A stretch of DNA of 64,000 bases from an uncultured Eubacteriales bacterium (GTDB lineage Bacteria; Bacillota; Clostridia; Oscillospirales; UBA644), in the NCBI GenBank assembly GCA_902373415.1, contig CABKLX010000006.1, positions 54,295 to 118,294 of the forward strand. Direction: 5' to 3'. The position numbers were made by a program, and so were the translations under genes. Positions within the stretch are counted from its first letter, which is position 1, and every line of letters begins with the position of its first letter. A model generated the notes under the pieces. The model did not search any database. It was given only the letters and a program-made list of their open reading frames with translations, and was not told where the DNA came from. Shown here piece after piece: positions 29,656 to 48,424 of the stretch.

Positions 29656-31704
29656 ATGAAAAAAGCGTTTTCTGCATTGCTTGCGCTGACAATGATTCTT
29701 TCGCTTGTGCCCGCATTCGCGGTTTCGTCCCACGCGTTGCAATCGGGCAGCTGGCAATACGAAGTTACGGGCGGAAAAGCGACGATTACGGGGATTGATT
29801 CCGATGCTGTGTCCGGAACTGTCATCATTCCTTCAAAGCTCGGCGGTTATCCCGTGACGGCGATAGGTGGCTCCGTATTCAGAGGTTGTAGCGGTTTGAA
29901 AAATGTATCGATTCCCGATAGTGTAAAATCAATAGGGGATAGGGCTTTTTACGACTGCGGATTTTTAAATGATGTAACAATTCCCGATAGCGTGACATCT
30001 ATAGGAGATTTTGCGTTTTTTGGTTGTGACAGTTTTACAAGCATAGTCATTCCCGACAGCGTGGTTACAATGGGTACCGGTGTTTTCAGGCATTGCGGCG
30101 GAGTGAAAAGCATAAAATTTTCAAAAGGTATGAAATCTATAGTCGATTCTACATTTTATGACTGTAAGGGGCTGACAAGTGTAAATATTCCCGGCTATGT
30201 GACTTCTATCGGTGAACATGCATTTGAGGGTTGTTCGAAACTTAAAAGTATAGTGATTCCTGGCAATGTTAAAGCAGTAGGTTCAAACGCATTTTCTTCT
30301 TGTTGGGATCTCGTAAGCGTAACAATATCCGAAGGGGTAACGTCTATCGGCGATCATGCGTTCCGAAACTGCACCGCATTGGAAAACGCAACTATCCCTC
30401 GCAGTATGACTTCAATAGGCAGTTATGCGTTTTACAATTGTGAAAAATTAAAAGAAATAAATATTCCCGAAAAAGTAAAAACAGTGCAAAAAGCAACATT
30501 TAAAGGCTGTTCGTCGTTGCTGAACTTGACCATTGCGGAGGGCGTAACTTCAATAGAAGATTCCGCTTTTGAAGGTTGCTCGTTTTTACCGATTATAAAG
30601 CTTCCGAACAGTATGACTTCGATAGGTTCTTATGCCTTTAATCAATGCTCGGCTTTGGTTGCCGTATGTATTCCTTCCGGAGTAAAGTATATAGGACCCT
30701 TTGCGTTGAATAGTACCGACGAATTGACTGTTTACGGTAAAAACGGTTCGAACGCACAGTCATACGCAGAACAAAAAAATATTAAATTTGTTTCATGCAG
30801 TTCCTTTGCTGTCGAGGGAAATTGGCTGTATATGATCTCAGGCGGCAATGCAACATTGCTGCATGTTGTCGGAAATGCTTCGGGTGATGTTGTAATACCT
30901 CGTACTCTGGGCAAGTATTCTGTAACAACGATAGAAAACTATGCGTTTACAAACTTTCTCGGACTGACCGGAATAACTATACCGAGTACCGTAAAAACAA
31001 TCAAGCATGACGCTCTTTCTTATTGTTTGAGATTGAACAGTATCAATGTAGAAAAGAACAACACCGTATATACCGCTGCAGGGAACTGCCTTATTGAGAA
31101 AAAAACAAAAAAACTGATAAAGGGTAGTAACGGCAGCGTTATTCCGCAGGATGGCAGCGTGACGTCTATCGCCGAAAGCGCGTTTGATAATTGCCATCAA
31201 TTAACTGAAATAACTGTACCCAAAGGTGTGACCTCAATAGAGAGTTATACATTCTTTGCATGTGACAGTTTGATAAGTGTAACATTGCCCGATGGTTTGG
31301 TAACGATAGGTGACGGGGCATTTAAAGGGTGCTCATCATTAACTCGCATAAATATTCCTTCAAGCGTTACTTCAATAGGAGAGTATGCTTTTAGTGATTG
31401 CTCCGACCTGAAAACCATATTCGGCGAAAAAGGCACATATGCGCAGAAATATGCGGAAGTACATGGCTTTGGCTTTGTAGATATTTCCGATAACCCCGAT
31501 TTTGTTTACGGCGACGCGGACGGCAGCGGTGAGGTTGACATCACCGACGCCATGCTTGTGTTCTACCATGTTGCGAAAAAGGAACTGCTTCCCGACGAAG
31601 CTCTTGTCCGCTGCAACGTAAACGACGACAACGATGTGGACATAGCGGACGCCATGGCGATATTCTACTTCGTGGCAAAGAAGACCGATTCGGTGAGACA
31701 GTAG
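29656..31704 (+). CDS. BspA-type leucine-rich-repeat surface protein with C-terminal type I dockerin
   Basis: Signal peptide. Many repeats of roughly 23 aa (IPDSVTSIGDxAFxxCxxL). Duplicated dockerin segment DADGSGEVDITDAMLVF / NDDNDVDIADAMAIF. The gene and its flanks are visibly AT-richer than the neighbours. Confidence 0.85.
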   Translation: MKKAFSALLALTMILSLVPAFAVSSHALQSGSWQYEVTGGKATITGIDSDAVSGTVIIPSKLGGYPVTAIGGSVFRGCSGLKNVSIPDSVKSIGDRAFYDCGFLNDVTIPDSVTSIGDFAFFGCDSFTSIVIPDSVVTMGTGVFRHCGGVKSIKFSKGMKSIVDSTFYDCKGLTSVNIPGYVTSIGEHAFEGCSKLKSIVIPGNVKAVGSNAFSSCWDLVSVTISEGVTSIGDHAFRNCTALENATIPRSMTSIGSYAFYNCEKLKEINIPEKVKTVQKATFKGCSSLLNLTIAEGVTSIEDSAFEGCSFLPIIKLPNSMTSIGSYAFNQCSALVAVCIPSGVKYIGPFALNSTDELTVYGKNGSNAQSYAEQKNIKFVSCSSFAVEGNWLYMISGGNATLLHVVGNASGDVVIPRTLGKYSVTTIENYAFTNFLGLTGITIPSTVKTIKHDALSYCLRLNSINVEKNNTVYTAAGNCLIEKKTKKLIKGSNGSVIPQDGSVTSIAESAFDNCHQLTEITVPKGVTSIESYTFFACDSLISVTLPDGLVTIGDGAFKGCSSLTRINIPSSVTSIGEYAFSDCSDLKTIFGEKGTYAQKYAEVHGFGFVDISDNPDFVYGDADGSGEVDITDAMLVFYHVAKKELLPDEALVRCNVNDDNDVDIADAMAIFYFVAKKTDSVRQ

Positions 31705-31732
31705 TTTTGTCAGACCTGACTTAAATTTGAAA

Positions 31733-31759
31733 GTGCCTGCGGAAATTTTTCGCAGGCAC
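31733..31759 (+). terminator. Hairpin terminator after the LRR-dockerin gene
   Basis: GTGCCTGCG-gaaattttt-CGCAGGCAC followed by a T-rich tract. Confidence 0.55.
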
Positions 31760-31817
31760 TCTTATACTTTTTGAAAAACATATTCAGCCTAAGCCGGAAA
31801 AAGGCAAGTTTTTTATT

Positions 31818-32378
31818 TTAACCCGCGAGCAGTTTGCTTATCTGTTCGCGGAGTTTTTTTGCGCTCATTTTGCCGCCGAGCGTCTCAAAAACGCTTTCGG
31901 GACTTGCGCCTTCCGTCGCAATACCGCGCTCCGCCGCCTCTTTCCTCGTCAGGATAACTCCGTCCGCGCAGGGATCGAGCCCGAACCGTCGGCACAGATC
32001 CGCCGCGAGTTCGACCGCCGTTCCGAATACGTTCCCCGTTCTGATGTCCGCTTCCGAACGGCGGTAGACCGCGTACGGACAGTTTTTTTCATCGCTTTTC
32101 GCCGCGGGAAGCACGAGCGCCGCTCCTATGTATCTTTCGTCCGCCGTTCCCCCCGAATGGGCGGCAAAGCGCGTCGGGTGTGCCAGCGCGTAGACGATCC
32201 CCTCGCCGCAGACATAGTGATACGCGCGGTCGGAAAGCGCTCCGTCAAGCCTGTTCGCGACCGCCGTCGCCGAGCCCGTAACGCTTTTTTCGAGGCTGAA
32301 AATTATCCCTTCGACGCGAATTTTCCGTCTCGGAAGTATTTTTGAGTTTTTCAGCGCATATCTGCAGATTATTTTCAT
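31818..32378 (-). CDS. Putative endolysin (amidase_2/PGRP-like by weak motifs and position)
   Basis: Last gene of the holin cassette. AYHYVCGEG and AAHSGG...YIGAALV resemble the amidase_2 core. I could not place the expected Zn-ligand His/Cys residues. Confidence 0.4.
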   Translation of the reverse strand: MKIICRYALKNSKILPRRKIRVEGIIFSLEKSVTGSATAVANRLDGALSDRAYHYVCGEGIVYALAHPTRFAAHSGGTADERYIGAALVLPAAKSDEKNCPYAVYRRSEADIRTGNVFGTAVELAADLCRRFGLDPCADGVILTRKEAAERGIATEGASPESVFETLGGKMSAKKLREQISKLLAG

Positions 32379-32455
32379 TTTTCCGTTCCTTTTTCTCCGT
32401 CATGCCGCGGAACCTCCCGTTCCGTTTACATGTCTCTTTTCCGTATTCCGTGCCG

Positions 32456-32710
32456 CTACTGCGGCTGAGTGTAACTCATGGCCCTCTCGCTGTCGGAAAG
32501 CCCTTTCGTGGTCGGGTCTGCAACGACGCCGACGAGCGTCAGAACCGCGAACAGCGCGTTGATCGCCGCCGTCAGCCTTTGTCCGAGATCCCCGAAGTCC
32601 GTCGGTATTCCGAACACCGCCGCGAGCGTCTGAAAGAGCAGAAGCGCCGCAGGCACGAGCGAAAGCCAGAATGTTTTGTTTTTTGCTCTTACCGCGAAAT
32701 TGATCTTCAT
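32456..32710 (-). CDS. Phage holin, phi LC3 / Phage_holin_1 family
   Basis: KNKTFWLSLVPAALLLFQ...VVADPTTKGLSDSERAMSY is the typical family pattern. Two TM helices. Confidence 0.85.
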   Translation of the reverse strand: MKINFAVRAKNKTFWLSLVPAALLLFQTLAAVFGIPTDFGDLGQRLTAAINALFAVLTLVGVVADPTTKGLSDSERAMSYTQPQ

Positions 32711-32714
32711 CTTT

Positions 32715-32963
32715 TCACCTCGCTTCCAGATCCCTGACCCTGTGGTTCAGGACTTTTATCTGCTCCTCGACAACGGGCATGCGCCTTGCGAAATTGTTGT
32801 GTTCGCGCACTTCCCGCGTCAGTTCCGTTATTTTTTCGTCCGTGACCGCCTGATGCGTCCTGATATGATGTTCCGTTTTTCGGGAGGACGCGATGATCGT
32901 TCCGACCGTTCCGATCAGCGCGAGCCCGCCCGTAATTATTGCTGCGATTATCGATTCCGTCAT
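32715..32963 (-). CDS. Small membrane-anchored coiled-coil protein of the lysis cassette
   Basis: N-terminal TM helix (IIAAIITGGLALIGTVGTIIA) followed by a coiled-coil segment. Sits immediately upstream of the holin. Confidence 0.5.
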   Translation of the reverse strand: MTESIIAAIITGGLALIGTVGTIIASSRKTEHHIRTHQAVTDEKITELTREVREHNNFARRMPVVEEQIKVLNHRVRDLEAR

Positions 32964-33022
32964 GATCCTGCCTCCGCGATCGCCTGCGCGTTCCGTCCTT
33001 CGAATATCTTTGTTTTCATCGG

Positions 33023-34207
33023 TTACGCGCCTCCGCTTTGGTTAAGGCTTTCGATGTACGCTTTGACCCAGCTTATAACGGCTTTTGAAGTCGGTATGTT
33101 GTAAGCGGCCAGACCGCTTTCGGAAAGATTGTTCACATCGATCGACCGCCCGATGTACGTTCCCGTTGACGTGTCGCTGTCATAATTGTGCTGGATCAAT
33201 ACCATTGTCTTCGTTTTGTCCGTATCGGATAGCTGCAACGGGTTGCTTTTGTCCCCGACATAATCTTTCAGCAGCTTTGTCGTCGGGATCATGTAATCGC
33301 TCGGTTCTTCCGGCATCGTCGTTGACTTGACGAGCGTTATCACCCCCACGGCGCTTTCGTTTGAAAGAATTCCTTTCTGAGACGGCTTGTCGACCTTGTT
33401 TGCGATTTTCGCGACCTCCGCTTTGTCCTCATCGGTGTAATCATTTGTCGAAAGCCCCTTGCCCTCGACCTTGTCAACCTTTTTCAGATAGTTGTTGTAC
33501 GCATTTGCTTCGACCGTCTCTACTCTTTCCGTAATCCGGTCAAACTCCTGAGGCATCCAGGTTTCAAGAAGCTCTTTTGCAGAGTCGGTGTAATCGTTCG
33601 TTGAAAGATATTTTCCCTCGACCTTGTCGACCTTGTCGCGCAGGATCGTTCCGACCGTTTCGAGACAGTCTTCCAGATCCGCCTCGTCCGCCTTTGACGG
33701 GATAAGCCCGACGAGCGCTTTGTCCGCGTCCGTGTAGTCGTTTTTGCTTCCGACGCGCACGAACTGTCCGCCGCTGAATATTTTGAAGCCCTCCGCGTCG
33801 TTTTTGATGACCGTTACGCCTGTTTCGTCTGTCGGCGTGAACACGCATTTTTCGGTCACGCCCGCGTCTTCCGATCCCGCGGGAAGCGTATCCGACGCAT
33901 AAGCCGAGCGCATAACCGTGATCTCCGCTCCCGTCATCGTCGCCAGATCTCCCGTGAAAGCCGTGACGCGGATGACGCCCGGCTCCGCGTAAAATTCGTT
34001 CGGTATCGCGACCTTTTCATCTTCTCCTATCGGAAGATAAACGCTCTTTACGCCCTCCTTTTCAAACTGCACGTACCGCGCGCCGTCCGTCTCGGTCTCA
34101 AATACGAATTCGACCCCGTAAAGATTTCTCGATCCCGACAGAACGGGCTCCGCGTCCGCGAACAGCATTTGCCCCTGAACAGTTATTTTAATATATCTCA
34201 TTTTCAT
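33023..34207 (-). CDS. Tail-fibre-like protein
   Basis: Three or more repeats of the KVDKVEGK-x-LSTNDYTD motif. ATGA overlap with the upstream gene; RBS ggaaggag. Confidence 0.65.
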   Translation of the reverse strand: MKMRYIKITVQGQMLFADAEPVLSGSRNLYGVEFVFETETDGARYVQFEKEGVKSVYLPIGEDEKVAIPNEFYAEPGVIRVTAFTGDLATMTGAEITVMRSAYASDTLPAGSEDAGVTEKCVFTPTDETGVTVIKNDAEGFKIFSGGQFVRVGSKNDYTDADKALVGLIPSKADEADLEDCLETVGTILRDKVDKVEGKYLSTNDYTDSAKELLETWMPQEFDRITERVETVEANAYNNYLKKVDKVEGKGLSTNDYTDEDKAEVAKIANKVDKPSQKGILSNESAVGVITLVKSTTMPEEPSDYMIPTTKLLKDYVGDKSNPLQLSDTDKTKTMVLIQHNYDSDTSTGTYIGRSIDVNNLSESGLAAYNIPTSKAVISWVKAYIESLNQSGGA

Positions 34208-36111
34208 TTCAGTCTCCTTCCTCCGATCGGCTTCGTCTTCCTCGCTTTCAGAACGATATCGCCGATCTCTGTCCGTCCGCGTCCTTTTACGACCGCGCAA
34301 AAACCGCGCCCTGCCGCGTCTGTCGGTCTGAACGCATATCTTCCGTTTGCCCCGTACGGACGGACTTCAAACCCGTCCGTCACGGGATCTCCTTCTTCGT
34401 CTGTTGCCGAATCGGGAACGATGAAGAGCCGAACGTCTCCGTTCGCTCCGAACGAACAGCCGCGTTTTTCAAGCCTTTTCATCCGCGTTTTGTCTCCGAA
34501 ATCCTCCGTCGCCGTGACCAGCGTCGGCTCGATCGTTCTTTCCGCGTCCGTTCCTTCAAAATCCGCGTCCGCGTCCGCGCCGAGATACTCGACCGAAATA
34601 TCTCCGTCCGCCGTCCCCGAAAGAACCGCCGCTTTTCCGTTTTTCTCCGATCCGATGCCCTGCACCGCGAACGGCGCCGCTCCGCTTTCGCTTCCGATAT
34701 TCGTCCAAAGAAACCAGCCGTTTTCCTTTTTCCCCGTGCGCCCGTTCTTCGCCTCGTCCCGCGAGACGAAAAGATCCGTCCCGACCGAAAGAAGCGCCGT
34801 GCCGTTGAAAGCCGTCAGACGCGGCGTTCCCGAATATCTTTTCAGAAGCCCGTCGATGCCTTCCGACGCGGAGCGCAGGCTCGAAGTGTCGTTGACCGCC
34901 GCCGGAACGATGCGCTTGACCCCGTCCTCGGAAACGAAAAGGGGAGAGCCGAGGTGATGAACGGCGTTGCCTGTCCCCGTCACGCCGCAGTCATAAAGTC
35001 CGTATTCCGCCGGGTATTCTTTCCCCAACGCGTCTCCCGCCGCCGTCCTCGGATAATGAAAGCGTATCAGCGGAGCCGCCGCTCCCGCATGCTCGATCGC
35101 CGCCAGATATTTCCCGACTTCGGCGAAGACCTGCGTTCCTTCCGACCCTGCGCAGACCGCGTTTTCGCGAAAGAAGAACGGGTCGCCCTCCGCCGAAAAA
35201 ATGACCCTTCCGCTTGCGCCGCTTTCCGCCGCCGCGCACAGGAATACCCGTCCGTCGAAGACCGCGCCGAACGCTTTTGTCAGCGGTTCCCTCACGGTTT
35301 TTTCCTCGTCGGGTTCTCTGCACAGAACGGTGATCTGTGTGTTCTTGTCGGGTATGGACGGCAATGTCACAGAGCCCGCCGAACCGTCCGAAAGCGTCTT
35401 GAAGACCTCTGTTCCCTCAAACGTGTAAACGCACGAGATCATTTTCGCGCCGCTTTTCCCGAGAACGAACGTTTTGCTTTTCCCGTCCGCGGTCACGCTG
35501 ACGCGGAAACACGGCGAAAGCATATTTTTCGCGCCGAGATATTTTCCGTCCCTGCAAATGAGAGGCGCGTCCCTTTCCGCGATCGCCGAAAACTCCGAAA
35601 CGCTCGCGACCGCATTCATTCGGCTCAGCGCGGCGGAGGGCGTATACACACTTGTCCCGTCCTTTCCGAAACGGAACACGCCGTTACCGTTATAGACGAT
35701 CAGCGCGTCGTCGAATTCGACCGTCGCGTCTGCCGAAAGCGGCGGGTTTTCGCTTATGCGCGACGAAAGGGAAGAGGCAAGAACCGTGTAATCCCCGTCC
35801 GAGATCAGTTCGTCTCCCGAAAAACTCAGCCCGTTCACATTCGGAAAACACAGCCATTCGAGCATATACGCGCCCAGCCTCAGAAGCACTTTGTCCCCGA
35901 CGGAGTAGATCCCGAACGCGCCTTTCGCTTTTTCGACGGGCTTTTTGAAAACACCCGCGTGAACGAGCGCGGGACGGGTTGCGAGCCGTCCGTTTTCAGG
36001 AAAAAGATCCGTCGCGGAAACGGCTCTGTCCGCGTCGATGACCGACGGGCTCGCCTGCGCATCAATTCCTTTTATCTGTGAAAATTCCCTTGTAATATTC
36101 CCGTTTGTCAT
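34204..36111 (-). CDS. Large virion structural protein (tail/nozzle-like by position)
   Basis: 635-aa ORF lying between the adaptor-like and fibre genes with tight spacing. No recognisable motif. Confidence 0.55.
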   Translation of the reverse strand: MTNGNITREFSQIKGIDAQASPSVIDADRAVSATDLFPENGRLATRPALVHAGVFKKPVEKAKGAFGIYSVGDKVLLRLGAYMLEWLCFPNVNGLSFSGDELISDGDYTVLASSLSSRISENPPLSADATVEFDDALIVYNGNGVFRFGKDGTSVYTPSAALSRMNAVASVSEFSAIAERDAPLICRDGKYLGAKNMLSPCFRVSVTADGKSKTFVLGKSGAKMISCVYTFEGTEVFKTLSDGSAGSVTLPSIPDKNTQITVLCREPDEEKTVREPLTKAFGAVFDGRVFLCAAAESGASGRVIFSAEGDPFFFRENAVCAGSEGTQVFAEVGKYLAAIEHAGAAAPLIRFHYPRTAAGDALGKEYPAEYGLYDCGVTGTGNAVHHLGSPLFVSEDGVKRIVPAAVNDTSSLRSASEGIDGLLKRYSGTPRLTAFNGTALLSVGTDLFVSRDEAKNGRTGKKENGWFLWTNIGSESGAAPFAVQGIGSEKNGKAAVLSGTADGDISVEYLGADADADFEGTDAERTIEPTLVTATEDFGDKTRMKRLEKRGCSFGANGDVRLFIVPDSATDEEGDPVTDGFEVRPYGANGRYAFRPTDAAGRGFCAVVKGRGRTEIGDIVLKARKTKPIGGRRLK

Positions 36112-36112
36112 A

Positions 36113-36688
36113 TCAGAGCCACCCCGTCGTGTTTTCCCATGCGTCCGTGACGTCCGCGCCCCGTTTCAAACTGTTTTTCAGTTCCCCGAATTTTCTCGCG
36201 TAACCCTCGGCAAGTTCCGGTTCATCGTCGGCGTATATCCTCGCCGCAACTCCGAGCGCGATCAGCCGCTGAGCCGCTTCGGAAATATCCGGCTCGAAAT
36301 CAAGTTCGTCCTCGGCTTCGACCGTGGCGGGATTTTTGATGTAACCGATGAAAAACTTTCCGACGGCGCTTTTCGGAAGCCTTACAACGGTGTCCGTTTC
36401 AAATTGCCAGCCTTCGACCGAAGTGCCCGTGTCCGCGTTGCGCGGAGGCGTTTCGTCGAAGCGCATAAAGTCTTTTCCGAGCAGTTGCCCGATGTCGAAT
36501 TCCGTTCTGCCGTCCGACGAAACGCGCTCGACCGCGATCCTTCTGCGTATCGGCGCCGCGTCCGACGCAAGTTCGAAAAGCACATCGTTCACGTCTTCTC
36601 TCAGAGTGTCACCGAACTCGAACGCGAAATCGCGTTCGTTCAGGTATCCGAGTTTTCTGATCTGCTCTTTTATCTGTCTGTATGTCAT
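36113..36688 (-). CDS. Virion structural protein (head-tail adaptor-like by position)
   Basis: 191 aa from the ATG at 36688, with an aagga RBS. The track ORF extends to 36808 through an Arg-rich stretch that is unlikely to be coding. Confidence 0.5.
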   Translation of the reverse strand: MTYRQIKEQIRKLGYLNERDFAFEFGDTLREDVNDVLFELASDAAPIRRRIAVERVSSDGRTEFDIGQLLGKDFMRFDETPPRNADTGTSVEGWQFETDTVVRLPKSAVGKFFIGYIKNPATVEAEDELDFEPDISEAAQRLIALGVAARIYADDEPELAEGYARKFGELKNSLKRGADVTDAWENTTGWL

Positions 36689-37030
36689 TTCCTGTCCTTC
36701 CCAAACCTTTTTTCCGAAAAAGTTTTGATAATCTGTTCTTCGCACAGGCGGTGTCAAAAAGTCCTCCGTGCCGCGTTTGTTCCGCCGCTTCCGCGACCGA
36801 AAATACACGTTCTGTCTTCTGTTCCTCCCGCGCCTGCCGTCGTCGGGGGCTTTTTCCCTTTCCGCTTCTCCGAAAGCCCTCCCGACGCTCCGTGTCGGGA
36901 GAGGCTTTCGGCGCCGAAGGCGTTTTTGACCCTGACCGTCGCGTATCAGACCGCCCGTGACCGCTCATGTATCGCGCCGCGGACGAAAAATCAATTCAAA
37001 GTAACGCAGCCGCAAACTCTCGCAGAATCA

Positions 37031-37091
37031 CTGCCCGCTGACAACTGACTGCTGCCCGCTGACCACTATCTGCTGTCCGCTGTCCGCTGAC
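37031..37091. repeat. Short direct repeats CTG(C/T)CCGCTGAC x4
   Basis: Copies at 37031, 37052, 37073 and 37080, inside a roughly 400-nt gap of doubtful coding potential within the structural operon. Confidence 0.8.
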
Positions 37092-37098
37092 TGCCGTT

Positions 37099-37233
37099 TT
37101 ACTGCGGCTTTGCCGCTCTCAGATCGCCGCCGACGGTCTTCTTGCCCGTCTTGCCCGCTTTCGTTTCAAAAAGAGCCTTGACGTACTGCGCCGCCGAGTT
37201 CTTGATCCTGCCCGCATAAGTCTTTTCTTTCAT
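37099..37233 (-). CDS. 44-aa basic protein downstream of the capsid gene
   Basis: Encodes MKEKTYAGRIKNSAAQYVKALFETKAGKTGKKTVGGDLRAAKPQ. Strong RBS (taaggaggtaaaggacg before the ATG). Too short for the ORF track. Confidence 0.55.
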   Translation of the reverse strand: MKEKTYAGRIKNSAAQYVKALFETKAGKTGKKTVGGDLRAAKPQ

Positions 37234-37247
37234 CGTCCTTTACCTCC

Positions 37248-38243
37248 TTATTTCAGTTCCGTGCCGCTCTCTGTGCCGCCGATCGCGAACGCGCGCCAGT
37301 CGTTGAAGCCCGCGGAAAATCTCGCTCTTCCTCTCCAGACCATGTTCCACGTCGCGGGATCTTCGTCCGCTTTGAGCGTGAGCGGCTTTCTGTCGAACCA
37401 TACCGCGCCGATGTTGTCTTCGTTGTACTGCGAGGACAGAACGATCCACGGATTGGTGCCCTCGGCGGGCTGCCAGTAAGGATCGACGATGACGTTCCAT
37501 CTGCCGAACTGATAATTGAAACCGTTGTTCGATGTCGCGGGATCTTTGTCCGCTCCTATGCACGCGAACACAGCCTTTTTCAGCGACATTTTGTTCGGAA
37601 TGACGATCGTGTCGGGAACAACTCCGAGAATATTTCCCTTGTCGTCCGTGTAATTCTGCATCGCGGTTTCGACAAGTCCGAGCCCGTCAGCGGAAAATTC
37701 GTTGGAATACATGTTCGACTGGGTCGCGGATGCGTCCGTGATCGAGGTGTGCGCGGTGTGGAACAGGGGAAGCCCGTCGTTGCAGGTCGTCGAGAAGGTC
37801 TGACCTCTGAAAGTTATGCTCTCTCCCGTCGCTCCCGTCAGAAGATTTGAACCGAAAAGTTCTCTCATTCTCATGTAGCCCGTGATGAACGCTGTCGGCT
37901 TCTTGCGGAGATTGATGATCTTTGAGTCGTCGAGCATCTCCTCCGTGATCGTAAATTCGCTCTTGAACGTGACGTGCGTCAGCGTCTTTGAATATCCTTC
38001 CTGCCAGCTTTCCGCGGGGAACGCCGCACCCTCGTCAACGGGCTTGAACCCGTCCATCGAGGTCATCGACGTGATCTTTTCCGCGAAAGAGGACGAAGTG
38101 TCCATGTTGTAGATCTTGGGAAGTATCGACTGCTTCTCAAAAGCCTCCGCCTTCTTTTCGATCATCATTTTGATCGGTTCGTAGGACTGCCCGTAAACCG
38201 AATTGTTCAGTCCCGAACTTTTACTGAAAGTAATGTTTGCCAT
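37248..38243 (-). CDS. Major capsid protein
   Basis: 331 aa; RBS aaaggag. Position after the scaffold gene and composition typical of major capsid proteins (MANITFSKSSGLNN..., ...GFNDWRAFAIGG). Confidence 0.7.
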   Translation of the reverse strand: MANITFSKSSGLNNSVYGQSYEPIKMMIEKKAEAFEKQSILPKIYNMDTSSSFAEKITSMTSMDGFKPVDEGAAFPAESWQEGYSKTLTHVTFKSEFTITEEMLDDSKIINLRKKPTAFITGYMRMRELFGSNLLTGATGESITFRGQTFSTTCNDGLPLFHTAHTSITDASATQSNMYSNEFSADGLGLVETAMQNYTDDKGNILGVVPDTIVIPNKMSLKKAVFACIGADKDPATSNNGFNYQFGRWNVIVDPYWQPAEGTNPWIVLSSQYNEDNIGAVWFDRKPLTLKADEDPATWNMVWRGRARFSAGFNDWRAFAIGGTESGTELK

Positions 38244-38547
38244 TTTTTTTCTCCTTTTCATTTGTCGGTTTGTTTTATACTGTCAATGATATTTGCTTTT
38301 GACCCGTGTTTTCCGCCCGTCGGAGCGTTGCTTTGCGATCCTCGGGGCTTGACGGAGAGATCTGTCGCCGATCGGGGGAGATAAAGCCTTTTTCTCCGCC
38401 GTGCCCCGTGTTTCGCTTTTTCCGTGAGCCTTTTGCGTTTTCTCCGTCGGTCAGACCCGAAATCCGGTATGCTCGGACGGAAGAAAGCGGATCTGTCGGA
38501 CACGCCGTTTTAATTCCGAGGGAAAATCACACCTTCCGAAGATGCCG

Positions 38548-39234
38548 TCATTCGTGCTGAGATCTGTTGTAATGCTCTCTGATCTCTCTGTCGCTGACGT
38601 TCGGAAGCAGTCGCCTGTACTTTTCGTATACGCCTCTCGGAACTTCGCAAAGCCCCGACTGATTTCCTTCCGAACGGAGAAGGTGCGCCTTCGAGCCGAT
38701 ACGCGCCCGCGCCCGCCCGTCCGCTTCTTTTTCCGCGTTCGCGCGCAATTGCGATATGTGCGTCGCCGCGTATGCGTCCGCCGCACTCAGCCCGATCGAT
38801 TCTCCCGCCCGCATAAGTTTCGCGAACGCATCGCCCAGTTCTTCGATGCTCGTCGCTCCGCAATCGGGAAACGCGCGCCTGATCTGCGCGAGTTGCCGCT
38901 CCGCCTCTCTCGCCGCGTCCGTCGCGAGTGCCTCTTCATTTCGGGGCTCCTCCCGCGCTTCCGCCGTTTCGGGTGCGTCGCCGCTTTCCTCTTCTTCGGG
39001 ATCTTCGCCGTTTTCGCTTTCGTTTTCATCTTCTCCGAAAGCGTCTTCGCTTCCGTCTGCGCCCGCCACGTAACTTCCGTCCTCTTCTCCGCCTCCGTCG
39101 CTTCCGCACGCGTAAAAGTCGGAATTTTCAACGTCCGTTTCTTCATCCGATTTCGGCGCCTTCACGCTTCCCGCGATCGCCGCCGCGACCTTTCCCGCGA
39201 ACCCCGAAACTTTTTGCCTTATGTCCCTTTTCAT
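38548..39234 (-). CDS. Scaffolding-like protein
   Basis: Highly acidic, helical and low-complexity (EDENESENGEDPEEEESGD). Lies between the portal and capsid genes. Confidence 0.55.
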   Translation of the reverse strand: MKRDIRQKVSGFAGKVAAAIAGSVKAPKSDEETDVENSDFYACGSDGGGEEDGSYVAGADGSEDAFGEDENESENGEDPEEEESGDAPETAEAREEPRNEEALATDAAREAERQLAQIRRAFPDCGATSIEELGDAFAKLMRAGESIGLSAADAYAATHISQLRANAEKEADGRARARIGSKAHLLRSEGNQSGLCEVPRGVYEKYRRLLPNVSDREIREHYNRSQHE

Positions 39235-39315
39235 CTCCCAACACCTCCTTTCACCGCTTTGATCTCTTCGCAATGAGACTTCCGCCCTCGGAACGCGCGC
39301 CGCCCTTTTGTCAGA

Positions 39316-39535
39316 CCGCCGTCACTTCGCCGCCGCCGTTCGGAAAATCACCGTCGCTTCGGCTCTGCCGTTCGGAAAATCCCCGTCGCTTCGCCGCCGT
39401 TCGGAAAATCCCCGTCGCTTCGCCGCCGTTCGGAAAACCGCCGTCGCTTCGGCTCTGCCGTTCGGAAAATCGCCGTCGCTTCGGCTCTGCCGTTCGGAAA
39501 ATCCCCGTCGCTTCGCCGCCGTTCGGCTTCGGATC
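39316..39535. repeat. About 6.5 tandem copies of a 29/32-nt unit (GCCGTTCGGAAAATCCCCGTCGCTTCGCC / ...CGGCTCT)
   Basis: Unit starts at 39335, 39367, 39396, 39425, 39457 and 39489, with partial copies at both ends. Intergenic between the portal and scaffold genes. Confidence 0.95.
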
Positions 39536-39551
39536 TCCTCATCGCACCTTT

Positions 39552-39579
39552 ATGTTATCAGACCGAACCTCTCTGCGAA
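39552..39579 (-). promoter_or_regulatory. Element promoter motif, copy 1 (drives the scaffold/capsid unit)
   Basis: On the minus strand: ACAAATTCGGGG-TTCGCA, a 16-nt spacer, then TAACAT. Confidence 0.5.
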
Positions 39580-39646
39580 CCCCGAATTTGTTACATTTTT
39601 GTGAACTGAATTGCCGGGCAGAGCCTCCGCCCTTTTCCGAAGAGCC

Positions 39647-41362
39647 TTATTCCCTCTCTTCCTCTCCGTTCAACTCCCTGAGCACGCCGGTTGCATTCGG
39701 ATAATCGAGTTTTTCCAACTGCCTCCAATACGTTTCGACCGTTTTCGGATCGTCGGGGTTTCCGAACCTTCCGTTGACGAAATCGGACTTGACCTCCGCC
39801 CACATCGCCTGTCTGTCATCCAGAAACGCCGCCGAACCGTCCACCTCGAAAATATAGTCGTCGTCGTAATACCATTCGCCGTCCCCGTCTCTTTCAAGAA
39901 AATCGTAACGCGAAAAGACCGTGTCGGGCTCTTCTTCCGCGCCGTTTCCGAAAGTCCTCGGCTCGTCCGCGTACGCGAGCATATATTGGAAGATCGCCTT
40001 GAAAAGATCGCAGTACGCCATGTTTTTCAGCCTTATCTTCGATTCGATCCTGCCCGCCGCCTGCGCCGCCGAGAACTGCTTCGCCGTTCCCGACACCGCC
40101 GTGTTGTCGCGTTTTCCCTGATACGCGTCCGTTATGCCGAGCGTTGAGCGCGCGTCCTCGTAATATTTTGAAAGCAACTGAAGATCCTGCTGTACCGAAG
40201 GCTGGAGATTGATCGCGTCGATCATCGCCTTCTGACCCGCGTTGTCGAGAAAGACGAGTTTGTCCTCTCTGTCCGATGTCTCGATCCTGACCCCGCGCGG
40301 AAGCGTCAGCACCGACCCGCCTTTCAGCAGTTTTTCCTGCACCTTGCTGTAAAGTTTGTTGTGCGCCGTCTGCAAGTCCGCGATCAACTCGCAGTCGCTC
40401 TCTCCGCCGAACTGTCCGTACAGCGAAACATTCTTGCGCATGATGATCGGAAAGACCGACGGCGTGTAATAGGGGAGGACCGTCCGTGTAACCTCACCGT
40501 CTTTTCGCTCCCACACGTTTATAATGCTCCCGTCCGCGCACTCGATGTCCGTGAAGATCGCCTCGCCGGGGCATTCCGCAGGCACCGTCGCCTTGCCCCC
40601 GCAGGAACATTTTTTGCCCCTGAACGCATGGAGCGCGCCGCATCTGTCGCACGCGTATTGAAGCCGTGCGCGGTATTTTTCGTAGTCTTCCAGAACCGTG
40701 TTTCCCGCCCATGAGAAAACTCCGAGAGTGCCTTCACCGTTGATGTAATAAGCCGTCACCTGCATCACCGTGTCGTTCCCGTATTCCGTCTCTCCGCGCC
40801 CGAACTCACCGTCATCGACCGTCACTCCGTAACGCCTGTTCAGCCTTTCTTTCGTGTCCGTAAACGTGACGAAAACATAGTCCGCGCCGTCAATGTCCGT
40901 CACTCCGGGCTGGGGAATGACCTGCTTCGGATGCAGAAGACGGACGAACGGCTCTCCGCAGCCCGCGCGCGTGTTTTTTTCACTGTCCCAGCCGATAAGA
41001 CGGAAACTCTGTCCGAGGATCTTTGTCATTCTGTCCTCCTCCGAGTTCGTCCTTTCGGGCGCGATCTTCCTCACCGCCGCGCGGAGCATCGATTCGATCG
41101 CCCTCGCGTTCCGCTCTTTTTTCGGCGAATGTACGGGCGAAGATACCTTCGGCATCGGGATCGTGTTGTCGATCTGCGCCTCGATCAGTTCAAACGTGAA
41201 ATTCCTCACGACCGACGCGTTTTTCGCCCTTCTTCCGTCGGTGAACACCTGCCTGTCGCCCTTGTACTGTTTCGTCCACCTGTCGTAGTCCGCGAGCCGC
41301 GCGGAGTATTCCGCTTCCGCCTGCGCGAACCTGTCTTTCCAGATCTGTAATTTTTCGTTCAT
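39647..41362 (-). CDS. Portal protein (with Cys4 zinc-ribbon-like insertion)
   Basis: 571 aa with RBS aaggaga. Portal-like architecture and position. The insert reads CDRCGALHAFRGKKCSCGG. Confidence 0.7.
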   Translation of the reverse strand: MNEKLQIWKDRFAQAEAEYSARLADYDRWTKQYKGDRQVFTDGRRAKNASVVRNFTFELIEAQIDNTIPMPKVSSPVHSPKKERNARAIESMLRAAVRKIAPERTNSEEDRMTKILGQSFRLIGWDSEKNTRAGCGEPFVRLLHPKQVIPQPGVTDIDGADYVFVTFTDTKERLNRRYGVTVDDGEFGRGETEYGNDTVMQVTAYYINGEGTLGVFSWAGNTVLEDYEKYRARLQYACDRCGALHAFRGKKCSCGGKATVPAECPGEAIFTDIECADGSIINVWERKDGEVTRTVLPYYTPSVFPIIMRKNVSLYGQFGGESDCELIADLQTAHNKLYSKVQEKLLKGGSVLTLPRGVRIETSDREDKLVFLDNAGQKAMIDAINLQPSVQQDLQLLSKYYEDARSTLGITDAYQGKRDNTAVSGTAKQFSAAQAAGRIESKIRLKNMAYCDLFKAIFQYMLAYADEPRTFGNGAEEEPDTVFSRYDFLERDGDGEWYYDDDYIFEVDGSAAFLDDRQAMWAEVKSDFVNGRFGNPDDPKTVETYWRQLEKLDYPNATGVLRELNGEEERE

Positions 41363-41500
41363 ACTGTTCTCCTTTGTTTTTTAATGATTTTGTATTCAAA
41401 AAGTCCGACGGCAAAGCGCCGCCGTATATTTCCGACGCGGACCGTGTACGGTTTTGTCCGATCTCTTAAACCTTGTTTACGGTCTTTGCACGGACGCGTG

Positions 41501-41779
41501 TCAGTCAACGATATTGACGTTGATGACCGTTTCACGGTTTTTTTCCTCATTCTCGTTAAGCAGTCCGAGAATGATGTCCACCGCCTTCGAGTTCCCGTTC
41601 CGCGCCAACTCGTAAAGACTGTAAACAAGCGCGGTCTTCATGTTCTGATTTTTTCCCTCCAATCCGCACGCCGAGAGTTTTTCCCTGAGTTTTTCGTCCC
41701 TGACCTCGCTTTTCATTATATCTTCGAGAATTTCTCTGACCGTCTTCTGTCCCTTGTTTTTTGATCTTGTTTCTTTCAT
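41501..41779 (-). CDS. Small helical DNA-binding protein (small-terminase-like; weak call)
   Basis: 92 aa and the first gene of the structural unit. ALVYSLYELARNGNSKAVDIILGLL resembles the helical segments of small terminases. Confidence 0.35.
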   Translation of the reverse strand: MKETRSKNKGQKTVREILEDIMKSEVRDEKLREKLSACGLEGKNQNMKTALVYSLYELARNGNSKAVDIILGLLNENEEKNRETVINVNIVD

Positions 41780-41890
41780 TCCGCACCTCTTTTCCGTGAT
41801 TTCATGTTTGAGACCTTAACGGTTTTGCCGCCGCATGAGTGTTCCCCGTGTTTTCCCGCCGACCGAAGTCTTTGCTCCGTTTCCGCTTTC

Positions 41891-41918
41891 AGCCTATCAC
41901 CTTTAACCCCTCTGCGAA
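41891..41918 (-). promoter_or_regulatory. Element promoter motif, copy 2 (drives 41779 and portal)
   Basis: On the minus strand: ACAAAATCGGTG-TTCGCA, a 16-nt spacer, then TAGGCT. Confidence 0.45.
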
Positions 41919-42035
41919 CACCGATTTTGTGACAAAACGGAAAACTTTTTCCGCGCTTCTCCGCAACGGGCAAAAAAAATAAACGCGACCGGTTTTTCCG
42001 ATCGCGTCTGTATGTCTGAATTTGTTTTTTCGCCG

Positions 42036-42143
42036 CGCCGCCGTTATCTCGTCTGCCAACAGCACCGAGGATCGTTTGAGCAGACTTCGCGCGACGGAGA
42101 TCCTTTGTTTCTCGCCGCCCGAAAGTCCTTTGCCGTTTTCGCC
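42036..42143 (-). pseudogene. Fragment of an ABC-transporter ATPase gene (signature to Walker B only)
   Basis: Translates to GENGKGLSGGEKQRISVARSLLKRSSVLLADEITAA. Homology stops abruptly on both sides. Confidence 0.7.
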
Positions 42144-42206
42144 GCAGAGACAGTCTCCGCCGCGCAAATATCCCGAGCGCGTTTTTCTTTTTTCACATTT
42201 TCGGGG

Positions 42207-42234
42207 TTCGCAGAGGGGTTGCCTCTGCTATCAT
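42207..42234 (+). promoter_or_regulatory. Element promoter motif, copy 3 (drives the replication-initiator gene)
   Basis: CACATTTTCGGGG-TTCGCA (42207-42212), a 16-nt spacer, then TATCAT (42229-42234). Confidence 0.5.
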
Positions 42235-42299
42235 TTAATAAGGGAAACGGTCGCGCGCGCCCCGTTTTCACGGAAATGAAAAGAAAGGAAAAAACATAA

Positions 42300-43694
42300 A
42301 TGCCCGTTATACGCGCAAAACAGACAAAAAATTTCACTCAGATAAGCAATTCCGCGCTCCGCAAAAAGGAACTGTCGCTCAAAGCCAGAGGGCTTCTGGC
42401 GTATATGCTGAGTTTTTCCGACGAATGGGATTTTTCCGTCTCTCATATCGTGAGAGAAAGCGGCGAACGCGAAAAAAGCGTCCGCGCCGCGCTTTCGGAA
42501 CTTGAAGCGGCGGGATATGTCAGGCATTCGCCGATACGCTCCGAGGAAGGAAAATTCGTGACGGTCAGATACGATGTTTTCGAAACGCCCGACCTCCGCG
42601 CCGAAACCGTTTCGGGCACATCGGCGGAAACCGAAAACACGGAACAAACGGAAAAACACGAACAGCCGAAAAGCCCCGAAAAAACGGAAGATACCGAGAC
42701 CGAGGCAAACTCCGAGAACGGGGAAACGCCCGAAAACGCGGCAAACTCCGAGAATGGGGAAATGCCCGAAAACGCGGAAATTTCCGAAAAGACGGAAGCG
42801 TCTTCATCTTCTCCGCGTGACGGAAGCCCGTATGCCGAAAAACCGTATGCCGAAAAACGGCATGCCGTTTTGCGGCATGCCGCAAAAGGCGGACATAAGA
42901 ATACCGAATATAAAAGAATACCGAAAAAAAGAACACTCTCTGAGAAAGAAAGAAGGCGTTCCCCGACCTTCGACGAAATCGTCGCTCAGGTCTCGGACGA
43001 ACGGCTCCGAAGCGCGCTCAGGGAATATCTTCGGATGCGTTTTATGATAAAAAGACCTCCGACCGACGCCGCGCTGAAAAAGTATATCGCCCGTGTTTAC
43101 GAACTTTATCCCTCGTCGCCCGAACTGCGCGTCCGCTGTGTCGAACAGTCCGTCATCAATTCCCGCCCGAACGCTTCTCGGCTTCCTTACGACATTGAGT
43201 TTCCCGACAAGCGTCACCGCTCCTCAAAACCCCGTTATGCCGCGAAAAACCGTCTCGGCTCATCCTTTGATAACGCAACAGCGTCCGAAAATGGCGCGCC
43301 TTGCTCCACCTCGCCCCACTCCGCGTCATCCGACGCCGTTGTCCGTGCGGAGAAAGAGACGGCGGCAACATCCTCTGCCGAGCCGCCCCGAACCGAGCCG
43401 CCGTCCGCGGAAAAACCGCTCCCGCTCACGGCTTCCGATGCGGACGCTCCCGACGGTCAGCCCGTGTCCGCGCTCCCCGAAATCTCCGCTTTTCCTCCGA
43501 ATGAACTCCCCGATGCCTCCGATTTCGGCGAAAAAACGGCGCCTTCCGCTCCCGAATCCTCCGATCCGCCTCCGTTTTGCGCCTCCGAGCCCTCCGATCC
43601 GCCTCCGTTCTGCGCTCCCCGCCGCTCCCGCAACGCCGAATCTATGGAGATCTCATGGCAGATCATTCTCGCCGATCTCGAAGACGAGGGCTGA
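42300..43694 (+). CDS. Replication initiator / replisome-organiser-like protein (N-terminal wHTH, DnaD-like middle region, low-complexity tail)
   Basis: FTQISNSALRKKELSLKARGLLAYMLSFSDEWDFS is typical of phage/plasmid Rep wHTH domains. LREYLRMRFMIKRPPTDAALKKYI is DnaD-like. Contains internal tandem repeats. Confidence 0.65.
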   Translation: MPVIRAKQTKNFTQISNSALRKKELSLKARGLLAYMLSFSDEWDFSVSHIVRESGEREKSVRAALSELEAAGYVRHSPIRSEEGKFVTVRYDVFETPDLRAETVSGTSAETENTEQTEKHEQPKSPEKTEDTETEANSENGETPENAANSENGEMPENAEISEKTEASSSSPRDGSPYAEKPYAEKRHAVLRHAAKGGHKNTEYKRIPKKRTLSEKERRRSPTFDEIVAQVSDERLRSALREYLRMRFMIKRPPTDAALKKYIARVYELYPSSPELRVRCVEQSVINSRPNASRLPYDIEFPDKRHRSSKPRYAAKNRLGSSFDNATASENGAPCSTSPHSASSDAVVRAEKETAATSSAEPPRTEPPSAEKPLPLTASDADAPDGQPVSALPEISAFPPNELPDASDFGEKTAPSAPESSDPPPFCASEPSDPPPFCAPRRSRNAESMEISWQIILADLEDEG

Positions 43695-44957: not shown

Positions 44958-45482
44958 ATGCCGAATTTTTATTACAGACGGGAGTGTTTTTTTACCGTGA
45001 TCACAGCAGACGGTCTGAAAATAAGACGCGCCGAAAAAGGCGACGTCGAAACGATCGACAGATTGCTTTATCAGGTCAACAATGTCCACAGCGACGTTCG
45101 CCCCGACCTTTTCAAGGCGAACGAGAAAAAGTACACCGACGAAGAACTTTTTAAGATCATCGCGGACGGTCAAACTCCCGTTTTTGTCGCCGAATGCGGC
45201 GGCGCGGTCGTCGGCTACGCGTTCTGCGTCCATCTTCGGTCCCTCGGCAAAAACAATATGACCGACATAAAAACGCTCTACATCGACGATCTCTGCGTTG
45301 ACGAAAGTATGCGCGGAAAGCACGTCGGCAAGAGCCTTTACGAATACGTTCTCGCCTACGCTAGGGAACAGGGCTGTTACAACGTCACGCTCAACGTCTG
45401 GGCAGACAACGAAAAAGCGGTCGGCTTTTACGAAAAACTCGGCCTCAAAGTCCAGAAAATGGGCATGGAAAAAATTCTCTGA
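44958..45482 (+). CDS. GNAT-family N-acetyltransferase
   Basis: IDDLCVDESMRGKHVGKSLYEYVLAYAREQG...NEKAVGFYEKLG. The true start may be the internal GTG near 44997. Confidence 0.8.
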   Translation: MPNFYYRRECFFTVITADGLKIRRAEKGDVETIDRLLYQVNNVHSDVRPDLFKANEKKYTDEELFKIIADGQTPVFVAECGGAVVGYAFCVHLRSLGKNNMTDIKTLYIDDLCVDESMRGKHVGKSLYEYVLAYAREQGCYNVTLNVWADNEKAVGFYEKLGLKVQKMGMEKIL

Positions 45483-45516
45483 TCGGCGCGCCGCCGACCG
45501 CCGACCGTTTTATATC

Positions 45517-45635
45517 GGCGTTCATCTTATCGCGTTCACCGTGCCGGCGTTCCGTCACATCGCGTTCACCGTCTCGGCGTTCGGCGTATCGCTTTCACCG
45601 TGTCGTCGTTCCGATCTCTCATCATCGGCATAAAA
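45517..45635. repeat. Four degenerate tandem repeats of about 29-30 nt (GGCGTTC-n6-ATCGCGTTCACCGT-n3)
   Basis: Unit starts at 45517, 45546, 45576 and 45605. The array directly abuts the tRNA-Ser half-site. Confidence 0.7.
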
Positions 45636-45637
45636 GC

Positions 45638-45689
45638 CTTGAAAACCGTTTGCCCTCTGGGCACGTGGGTTCGAATCCCACACCGTCCG
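45638..45689 (+). pseudogene. 3' half of a tRNA-Ser (anticodon loop to discriminator); no 5' half present
   Basis: CTTGAAA-ACCGT-TTGCCCTCTGGGCAC-GTGGG-TTCGAAT-CCCAC-ACCGTCC-G. The upstream sequence cannot form the acceptor, D or anticodon-stem 5' strands. Confidence 0.8.
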
Positions 45690-45882
45690 ACAAACTTCGC
45701 ACAACTTTGTGTAAAAAAAAGCGCTTGGATTTAGTGATATTCACTAAAAACCATGTGCTTTTTTCTTTGTTTTAAGCCCCCAGAATTTTTGCCTTGGAGA
45801 GAACTCGAAAATTCTCTCCCGTCAAATGTGCGCTTCCGCGTTATGTTTCTTTTTGAGTTCGAATAAAATTTTTTAAAACCTA

Positions 45883-45910
45883 TTGACAAAGTAAAAAATA
45901 AGAGTATAAT
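45883..45910 (+). promoter_or_regulatory. Consensus SigA promoter for the NTase-peptide pair
   Basis: TTGACA (45883-45888), a 16-nt spacer, then TATAAT (45905-45910). Confidence 0.65.
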
Positions 45911-45969
45911 ATAACGATTTAACGGTGCACAGTTAAATGGTCGGTTAGGGGTAATAGGAGGAAAATGTT

Positions 45970-46605: not shown

Positions 46606-46619
46606 AAGGAGGAAAAGTT

Positions 46620-46712
46620 ATGGGAAAAGGACACGGAGTTTCGGGACATACACACACTCAGGCACAGCTAAATAACTATGCCAATCAGAACAACCCCAAC
46701 AATTCTGCATAA
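46620..46712 (+). CDS. 30-aa His/Asn/Gln-rich peptide, translationally coupled to the NTase
   Basis: Encodes MGKGHGVSGHTHTQAQLNNYANQNNPNNSA. Perfect RBS aaggagg 7 nt before the ATG, 14 nt after the NTase stop. Too short for the ORF track. Confidence 0.5.
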   Translation: MGKGHGVSGHTHTQAQLNNYANQNNPNNSA

Positions 46713-46792
46713 ACTGTCCAATTATCTCTATCATAATAATTCATCCTTTCTAAAAAAATAAAGGGAGCGCTCGTCATGCCCCCTATAACTGT

Positions 46793-48418: not shown

Positions 48419-48424
48419 TTTTTG

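Follow-up and report, generated by a model that had tools for sequence, protein, structure and literature searches.

A 12-kb cluster of phage-particle genes lies at positions 31818-43694 of a 64,000-nucleotide (nt) stretch of DNA from an uncultured Eubacteriales bacterium (GenBank assembly GCA_902373415.1, contig CABKLX010000006.1, positions 54,295 to 118,294); this whole 64-kb stretch is hereafter called the window. The cluster comprises 11 tightly packed genes on the minus strand and one divergent plus-strand gene encoding a replication initiator (Rep), and it is known from its genes alone. We propose, giving this reading about an even chance of being right, that it is a domesticated cassette resembling gene transfer agents (GTAs), anchored in the chromosome and vertically inherited, which would build short-tailed particles and rely on a packaging ATPase supplied in trans. 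A domesticated cassette is consistent with fixation at one locus and conserved synteny, with divergence in step with the host, with selection acting on all head, tail and lysis genes, with a fibre that evolves fast and can be exchanged, and with the missing integration functions. As the cluster is intact and under selection across several species, domestication is more likely than a dying prophage, while fixation, synteny and the missing integrase favour it over a mobile satellite.

The proteins of the element were searched against Pfam, PHROGs and NCBIfam. They are listed below in their order along the minus strand, followed by the divergent gene, with sizes in amino acids (aa) and E-values in brackets; handles of the form L002 denote the related loci and contigs compared, L002 being from a sister species.

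41501..41779, minus strand: small protein, 92 aa, homologue of a protein in the position of the small terminase subunit (TerS); weak DUF5681 match, phrog_2412
39647..41362, minus strand: portal, 571 aa; phrog_156 (3e-28), weak matches to SU10_portal and P22_portal
38548..39234, minus strand: acidic protein in the scaffold position, 228 aa; identified from its place in the order and from 26-60% identity to the scaffold-position proteins of relatives
37248..38243, minus strand: major capsid protein, 331 aa, Mu gpT-like with HK97 fold; phrog_371 (3.7e-20), Phage_capsid_4 (9e-13)
37099..37233, minus strand: conserved 44-aa protein (p44), just 3' of the capsid gene; 82-83% identical in L002 and 80% in L103
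36113..36688, minus strand: head-to-tail adaptor, 191 aa; SU10_adaptor (0.015, weak), homologue in L001 (7.4e-5)
34204..36111, minus strand: conserved 635-aa tail protein in the nozzle position; homologues in the same position in relatives that contain the large terminase (TerL)
33023..34207, minus strand: tail fibre, 394 aa; three xSxNDYTD repeats read directly, phrog_32680 tail fibre (1.7e-11)
32715..32963, minus strand: coiled-coil protein of 82 aa with a membrane segment at its N terminus; phrog_1863 (3e-14), weak match to the holin family phrog_1296
32456..32710, minus strand: holin, 84 aa; Phage_holin_1 (3.8e-24), phrog_10091 (1.6e-30)
31818..32378, minus strand: lysin-like protein, 186 aa, divergent Amidase_2 type; Amidase_2 (4e-4, below the curated cut-off), phrog_2338 endolysin (4e-4)
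42300..43694, plus strand: Rep, 464 aa, lambda-O/DnaD-like, with an N-terminal winged helix and a long low-complexity middle; HTH_36 (1.7e-7)

An earlier reading of this DNA from its letters alone, hereafter the sequence-only reading, had given the gene order and coordinates correctly, and only minor changes of start were needed, for the capsid (38243, 331 aa), the scaffold-position protein (39234, 228 aa) and the fibre (34207, 394 aa). It had likened the structural block to that of T7-type podoviruses by gene order only, a limit that proved well placed since no protein belongs at the sequence level to the T7 portal, capsid or gp11/gp12 families, the weak matches being instead to SU10 and P22 portals and to the SU10 adaptor. 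Its NDYTD-repeat fibre was confirmed in translation. Regarding the first gene, which it had called a small DNA-binding protein, no DNA-binding domain was found and the description had to be changed: the 92-aa protein is better described as a TerS-position homologue, being 34% identical (E 4e-11) to a 133-aa protein encoded directly upstream of TerL in L010. Its AlphaFold model, made from the single sequence, is all-helical with a predicted local distance difference test score (pLDDT) of 63, and Foldseek against the PDB returned nothing below E=4.

Among the head and tail proteins, the portal has 1068 homologues at E<=1e-10, the capsid is 94-95% identical in sister species and the adaptor is 191 aa long in every lineage; the scaffold-position protein had no family match in the profile searches. 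The 635-aa protein matched nothing in Pfam, PHROG or NCBIfam, Pfam searches of nine homologues gave nothing useful, and only three homologous protein clusters were present in a set of 5.8 billion proteins. While its AlphaFold model, from a 4-sequence alignment, was uninformative (pLDDT 30), a profile built from 9 homologues matches beta-propeller proteins of the PDB at 4e-5, in keeping with a protein of the nozzle type. The fibre gene is the most variable of the cluster: fibres of 379, 495 and 504 aa occur in sister clades, some of them with an extra 1018-aa protein. Regarding lysis, the 82-aa membrane protein is conserved in L002, L103 and L104 and is a possible lysis accessory, and the lysin-like protein, 72% identical in L002 with a ratio of non-synonymous to synonymous substitution rates (dN/dS) of 0.20, is under purifying selection.

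To search for TerL, a family-specific hidden Markov model (HMM) was built by fetching 80 portal relatives from IMG/VR, seeding jackhmmer with the TerLs of three relatives and using 63 TerLs that adjoin homologous portals. Applied to the six-frame translation of the whole 64-kb window (all segments of 25 aa or longer, --max, E<=10), this model gave a single chance match (E=3.3) outside the element and nothing else, and it returned nothing in L002-L004, L007-L009 and L012 either; tblastn of the window with TerL queries from L001 and L005 found no match. Among the best 120 homologues of the L005 TerL, all of which are at least 50% identical to it, none could be placed on the long contigs that bear the element. 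Recombinases were found neither by Pfam and PHROGs among the main open reading frames (ORFs) of the element and its flanks nor by Pfam among the other large ORFs of the window, the search for serine recombinases extending only to called ORFs scanned with Pfam, and tblastn of the window with the tyrosine integrase of L001 was negative. No convincing direct repeat that could represent an attachment (att) site flanks the element, and profile searches found no HNH gene among its proteins. The sequence-only reading had reported neither a large terminase nor an integrase or other recombinase, and both statements hold in the window; the hidden terminase or integrase that it had named as fatal to its view was looked for there and none was found.

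Comparison with relatives indicates where TerL once stood. TerL lies just upstream of the portal in ~70 of the 80 IMG/VR relatives, several of the exceptions ending at a contig edge. In the nearest outgroup, L227 (portal 52% and capsid 75% identical), the C-terminus of TerL abuts the portal gene on its upstream side (E 1.5e-30), and L010 has TerL between the small-protein homologue and the portal; in the window, the gap from the small gene to the portal is only 138 nt. With the outgroup TerL directly before the portal, gene content indicates that TerL was cleanly lost from the phage ancestor of the cassette, and no frameshifted remnant of it survives at the locus. The notion of a truncated copy of a larger prophage, considered earlier, is thus right historically, as relatives with 45-52% portal identity carry TerL, and wrong in that no TerL remnant is left and the truncated form is conserved across species.

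In the portal tree, the sister group of the window clade consists of small prophages with TerL (L005/6, L010/11) and of the viral contig L015, and a second TerL-less clade (L007-9, L012, L019) branches elsewhere. In this second clade, L007 (6609-11045) and L012 (2809-12618) extend from portal to GH25 lysin beside different host genes (Dus versus MatE); their capsids are 92% and their portals 79% identical (tblastx), with saturated synonymous divergence (dS) and low dN. Within the phage family TerL is far more conserved than the portal (at least 50% identity for the best 120 TerLs versus 37-46% for portals), and none of 512 IMG/VR relatives has a portal more than 44% identical to that of the window. 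As a side observation, contigs L018 (13,188 nt), L029 (12,435 nt) and L001 (10,829 nt) carry TerL, portal, scaffold, capsid, adaptor, a ~620-aa protein and fibre, with an amidase in L018 and L029 and a tyrosine integrase in L001; no terminal repeats were detected in these IMG/VR and virome contigs, which may represent very small temperate podoviruses.

Evidence for domestication comes from the position of the element and from the way its genes evolve. It is flanked on the left by a gene for a BspA-type leucine-rich-repeat (LRR) protein with dockerin, a Na:Ala symporter and FtsH, and on the right by a pyridoxamine-kinase-like gene and a GNAT gene, followed by a defence island of low guanine-plus-cytosine (GC) content devoted to RNA repair and restriction-modification. 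The element occupies the same site in 10/10 contexts shown for the exact flanking kinase protein, as well as in the window, L003, L004 and L168. An identical capsid sequence is present on 173 contigs; GenBank phages gave no megablast match to the element, and the window portal had no exact-peptide match in IMG/VR. For the element genes sampled in 10-13 strains, mean pairwise dS is 0.017-0.046, and the flanking host genes give 0.028 and 0.044. In the sister species L002, the same TerL-less order is found with a portal 78% identical and dS of ~1.0-1.8 (0.52 for the 44-aa gene), all 10 genes from small protein to lysin being intact with dN/dS of 0.04-0.32, and in L104, as in the window, the LRR gene and the Na:Ala symporter come after the lysin (74% nucleotide identity for the symporter). 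One locus in all sampled strains, synteny in a sister species and a dS equal to that of host genes point to vertical descent rather than horizontal spread.

Within the species, every gene that has synonymous differences gives a dN/dS of 0.00-0.19, apart from the fibre, whose value of 0.52 comes from only 3 full-length alleles. The portal has 37 synonymous and 10 non-synonymous segregating codons (dN/dS 0.06 within and 0.12 between species), the capsid 13 and 3 (0.04 within, 0.037 between), and the adaptor 6 and 0 within the species. The sequence-only reading had argued against simple decay, and this argument is strongly supported by the fixed locus, the sister synteny, the intact genes and dN/dS values well below 1.

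Several insertions were also observed in related loci. A HipA-like kinase gene and a 417-aa ORF lie between the portal and the scaffold promoter in L002 (11800-14800), L140 and L163 (4225-4822); this sister-clade insertion is accompanied by a duplication of the last ~60 portal codons, the junction being an insertion hotspot. In L098 (1014-3071), DUF4268 and an MmeI_C fragment, with their own diverged copy of the promoter motif described below, are found between adaptor and p44, and in L097 (7722-9904) an N6 methyltransferase and a 243-aa gene follow Rep.

The non-coding features of the element are as follows.

31723..31769, no strand assigned: GC-rich hairpin (inverted repeat) in the gap where the lysin-like and BspA-LRR genes converge, probably terminating transcription in both directions and marking the left end of the element; terminator-like site at 31732-31760
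37031..37094, no strand assigned: tandem array of a 21-nt repeat, 3 copies, between the p44 and adaptor genes
39319..39521, no strand assigned: tandem array of a 32-nt repeat, 6.5 copies, within the scaffold-operon 5' leader
39545..39595, minus strand: promoter-like motif, copy 1, at the head of the scaffold-to-lysin operon; TTCGCA, then 16 nt and TG-n-TAACAT, preceded by conserved ACAAA boxes
41892..41937, minus strand: promoter-like motif, copy 2, heading the small-protein/portal operon; orthologue in L002 at 8911, also readable in L163
41981..42167, minus strand: ABC-transporter ATPase gene fragment (ORF translation LSGGEKQRISVARSLL...LLADE) with a terminator (terminator-like site 42009-41981), between two divergent promoters
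42188..42234, plus strand: promoter-like motif, copy 3, inverted, at the head of Rep; a consensus scan gives TTCGCA-16-TATCAT with TG upstream
42690..42935, no strand assigned: putative origin within the Rep gene, with direct repeats (18/36-nt and 15-nt), a palindrome and an AT-rich stretch

The promoter-like motif spans ~45 nt, with TTCGCA, a spacing of 16 nt and an extended -10 box, and reads TCGGKGTTCGCAGAGRGG in its search form. Allowing at most one mismatch, TCGGGGTTCGCAGAGGGG has exactly 3 copies in the window versus 0 expected, at 39566-39585 (minus strand), 41905-41924 (minus strand) and 42201-42220 (plus strand), each upstream of an operon. Copy 1 has orthologous copies in L002 (13634) and L103 (2269), and the motif is kept at orthologous sites in three species, so that the three conserved promoters announced earlier are borne out as motifs. 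It is absent from the TerL-containing relatives, and profile searches found no cognate regulator gene inside the element. A scan of JGI metagenomes for the motif was swamped by chance matches; among the matches listed were L140, L163 and L168.

Regarding Rep, profile searches returned replication-initiation families of PHROGs down to 2.3e-19, among them the O-like phrog_678 at 2.6e-10. Its length ranges from 358 to 536 aa among strains, and a homologue with 53% identity occupies the same divergent position in L163. The origin of replication would lie inside the Rep gene, in an arrangement like that of the lambda origin in gene O. A likeness of the N- and C-terminal parts of Rep to a 210-aa protein upstream of TerL in L005 (E 0.01-0.09 in a single comparison) was too weak to be retained. 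Between the two divergent promoters, the ABC-transporter fragment bears different deletions in different strains, L163 appears from a reading of its sequence to retain another, C-terminal piece, and gene calls in L097-L099 bear PF00005 ABC_tran. As this fragment decays by strain-specific deletions while 10 kb of structural genes stay open, it provides an internal neutral control. The two tandem-repeat arrays, for their part, are candidate protein-binding or pac-like sites; the portal-to-scaffold spacing is ~288-421 nt and the p44-adaptor region ~327-543 nt among strains. The possibility that the 32-nt array forms a structured leader RNA was rejected, the array folding worse than shuffled sequences (z = +2.6). 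CAG-rich repeats related to these arrays also lie upstream of the small gene in L002.

As a domesticated cassette, the element could work as follows. A trans-acting signal would turn on the three near-identical promoters whose motifs are described above, and the lambda-O-like Rep would then fire at the iterons in its own gene and amplify the locus, probably in place because there is no integrase or excisionase. Portal, scaffold and capsid, whose families are assigned above, would assemble small procapsids. The TerS-position protein would mark the DNA and an ATPase encoded elsewhere, either at another chromosomal locus or by a co-resident or infecting related phage, would fill the heads, this being the weakest step of the scheme. 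GTA genes are often dispersed. The adaptor, the 635-aa nozzle-position protein and the fibre would complete a short tail, and the holin and lysin-like protein would release the particles.

Several points weigh against a domesticated, GTA-like cassette. The supply of TerL in trans is an assumption, made after a search that spanned the 64-kb window, and to our knowledge no GTA lacks a terminase altogether. GTAs are normally devoid of replication genes, and the cassette retains Rep, conserved in L163, together with a putative origin; it is chromosomal, vertically inherited and under purifying selection as a GTA should be, and departs from the expected lack of replication, integration and regulatory modules by its Rep, though no integrase or repressor was found. 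A nonsense codon in the portal of L099 and a split Rep in L004 could reflect either true erosion or faulty assembly. In L103 (1-2402), from a third lineage, a host HisKA_7TM gene directly adjoins the scaffold-to-lysin module and its motif, with no portal or small gene within 2.4 kb, implying either that modules are dispersed in that genome or that the portal was lost. Finally, in a low-identity alignment with the Amidase_2 lysins of relatives, the lysin-like protein does not keep the histidines at two of the three zinc-ligand positions, and it may be non-canonical or catalytically altered.

The sequence-only reading had left three possibilities, a decayed prophage, a capsid-forming satellite and a domesticated GTA-like cassette; its case against decay stands, and fixation, synteny and the lack of an integrase now favour domestication over a satellite, neither of which is proven. 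The main rival, a helper-dependent satellite or defensive decoy needing only a terminase, is possible but less likely: a related phage would activate the three promoters, Rep would amplify the element, and the TerS-like protein and procapsids would capture the TerL of the helper, so that the heads are filled with DNA of the element or the host in place of phage DNA and the element spreads or the infection is aborted. Rep, a putative origin and a TerS-like gene within 12 kb are the classic tool kit of phage-inducible chromosomal islands (PICIs), the promoter motif has no regulator inside the element, and the high conservation of TerL relative to the portal means that a foreign TerL could plausibly dock. 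Small TerL-containing relatives, as prophages and viral contigs, occur in gut metagenomes, and the element borders a variable defence island and harbours inserted defence genes in some strains. The lack of an integrase and of convincing flanking direct repeats argues against such a satellite, as do the single locus in all sampled strains, the sister synteny and the dS equal to that of host genes; the 512 IMG/VR relatives, with no portal above 44% identity, give no sign of element DNA in viral collections, and own-capsid satellites described so far encode their own TerL (PMC10690885). A related idea, which we regard as unlikely, is that of an anchored "terminase trap", a domesticated phage that would have outlived the loss of its TerL because its procapsids and TerS-like protein capture the conserved TerL of related invaders and, together with amplification by Rep in place, abort the invader and package DNA outward. 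If true, the hypervariable defence island starting ~2 kb away would be mobilised in a manner resembling lateral transduction, and, given the second TerL-less lineage (L007, L012), gut Clostridia would have come to this strategy more than once.

That the cluster is an inert remnant seems very unlikely. A small temperate podovirus would have lost terminase, integrase and repressor by deletion, with degradation still to come and at most single genes kept. Relatives with TerL, repressor or integrase do show such losses, a host ABC-gene fragment sits inside the element, and the missing portal module of L103, the portal nonsense codon and the split Rep point the same way; of the marks of an intact prophage, head, tail and lysis genes are present, some by weak or positional assignment, and TerL, integrase and att sites are not. 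However, ten genes from small protein to lysin have stayed open across lineages at a dS of ~1 or more with low dN/dS except for the fibre, the non-coding promoter motifs are kept at orthologous sites while the neighbouring neutral ABC fragment visibly decays, and the second TerL-less lineage shows like conservation. We give hardly any weight to a self-sufficient mini-phage or particle system with an unrecognised motor, or to one making DNA-free particles. The 635-aa, 44-aa and 82-aa proteins lack a confident family and both structure predictions were uninformative, which leaves room for this idea, but relatives that have a normal TerL also have homologues of the 635-aa protein and of the adaptor, which hence do not replace it, and no element protein returned an ATPase family in the profile searches, Walker motifs not having been searched separately. 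In P22-type assembly, moreover, tails are attached only after DNA packaging.

Outside the element, the window consists of ordinary host genes, which fill its left 24 kb (Pfam on large ORFs), and of the defence island. This low-GC region (45-62 kb) was considered as a helper prophage, a proposal rejected on its actual content of RNA-repair and restriction-modification genes. The island (45000-62000, GC 36-50%) encodes a type I restriction-modification system (HsdR 51927-55223, HsdS 55549-56640, HsdM 57090-58589), a Fic protein (58586-59653) and YjbR, and its content varies between strains of the same species, with GmrSD, HEPN_Swt1 and other HsdR variants. Two tRNA-like elements on the minus strand (48335-48403 and 48425-48495) stand at the start of a DUF2828/DUF7788 (Ro60/TROVE-like) gene (46793-48358, minus strand); both match Rfam tRNA (40.9 and 45.9 bits), while ARAGORN calls one tRNA-Phe with an odd AAA anticodon. 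RtcB adjoins the Ro60/TROVE-like gene in sister strains, a WYL regulator lies at 50241-51500, and the tRNA-like elements with the Ro60/TROVE-like gene look like an Rsr / Y-RNA-like / RtcB RNA-repair module. On the other side, the element is separated from the Na:Ala symporter by the BspA-type LRR gene (29656-31704, plus strand, GC 41-43%). The 3' end of this gene and the adjoining intergenic region (31494-31800) are 96% identical to L104 versus ~70-74% for the neighbouring genes, which suggests recent exchange or strong constraint.

Compared with known systems, the cassette shares with the RcGTA type of Alphaproteobacteria vertical inheritance, purifying selection, the lack of an integrase and a cluster size of ~10-15 kb. 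RcGTA differs in being siphovirus-like with tail tube and tape measure, in having TerL in its main cluster and no replication initiator, and there is no sequence relationship; accessory genes of the RcGTA type can lie at other loci. PICIs and capsid-forming PICIs (cf-PICIs) resemble the element in their ~12 kb, Rep with a putative iteron origin, TerS-like gene and dependence in trans, here inferred, and the cf-PICIs also in having their own capsid and portal. PICIs differ in having an integrase, att sites, a repressor and a strain-variable presence, whereas the element of the window is fixed at one locus. Moreover, cf-PICIs encode capsid, portal, TerS, TerL and HNH and have no tail (PMC10690885); the element is the reverse, with tail and lysis genes present and TerL absent. 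Its TerL-containing relatives (L005, L010, L018, L029, L227 and MT836833) share the order of portal, scaffold, capsid, adaptor, large tail protein and fibre, with portals 40-52% and capsids 46-75% identical to those of the window. They differ in having TerL, in some cases with a CI-like or ImmA-type repressor or a tyrosine integrase, and in lacking the promoter motif.

A further likeness in organisation is to FpGTA of Faecalibacterium prausnitzii, which forms podovirus-like particles from two loci ~125 kb apart (Borodovich et al., Nat Commun 2026; PMC12946183). GTA-type packaging has been documented in gut Oscillospiraceae, Ruminococcaceae and Christensenellaceae, where capsid-borne transfer of bacterial DNA was recently found to be common, and the candidate GTA locus was found only in F. 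prausnitzii among the metagenome-assembled genomes searched in that study (PMC12946183). Both systems have chromosomal podovirus-like head, tail and lysis genes in gut Clostridia, conserved among strains, without an integrase and with a short TerS-like protein and separable modules. However, operon I of FpGTA has TerL and a Prp-like protease between portal and capsid, where the cassette has neither, and FpGTA has no replication genes (PMC12946183), whereas the cassette has Rep. The FpGTA capsid is annotated as N4-gp56 family and that of the window is Mu gpT-like, matching no N4-gp56 NCBIfam model at E<=0.01, and only Mu gpT-like and protease-capsid fusion models. Because the capsid family differs and no Prp-like protease is present, the cassette is, as judged by annotation only, not a homologue of FpGTA. 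It is a concrete and widely distributed candidate for another capsid-mediated DNA transfer system in gut Clostridia, with the unusual architecture of all but the packaging motor plus a replication initiator. Should a foreign phage supply the motor, a new satellite or defence logic would emerge; should the motor act in trans, the cassette would offer a testable case of a phage disarmed and kept, in which packaging specificity is separable from the ATPase.

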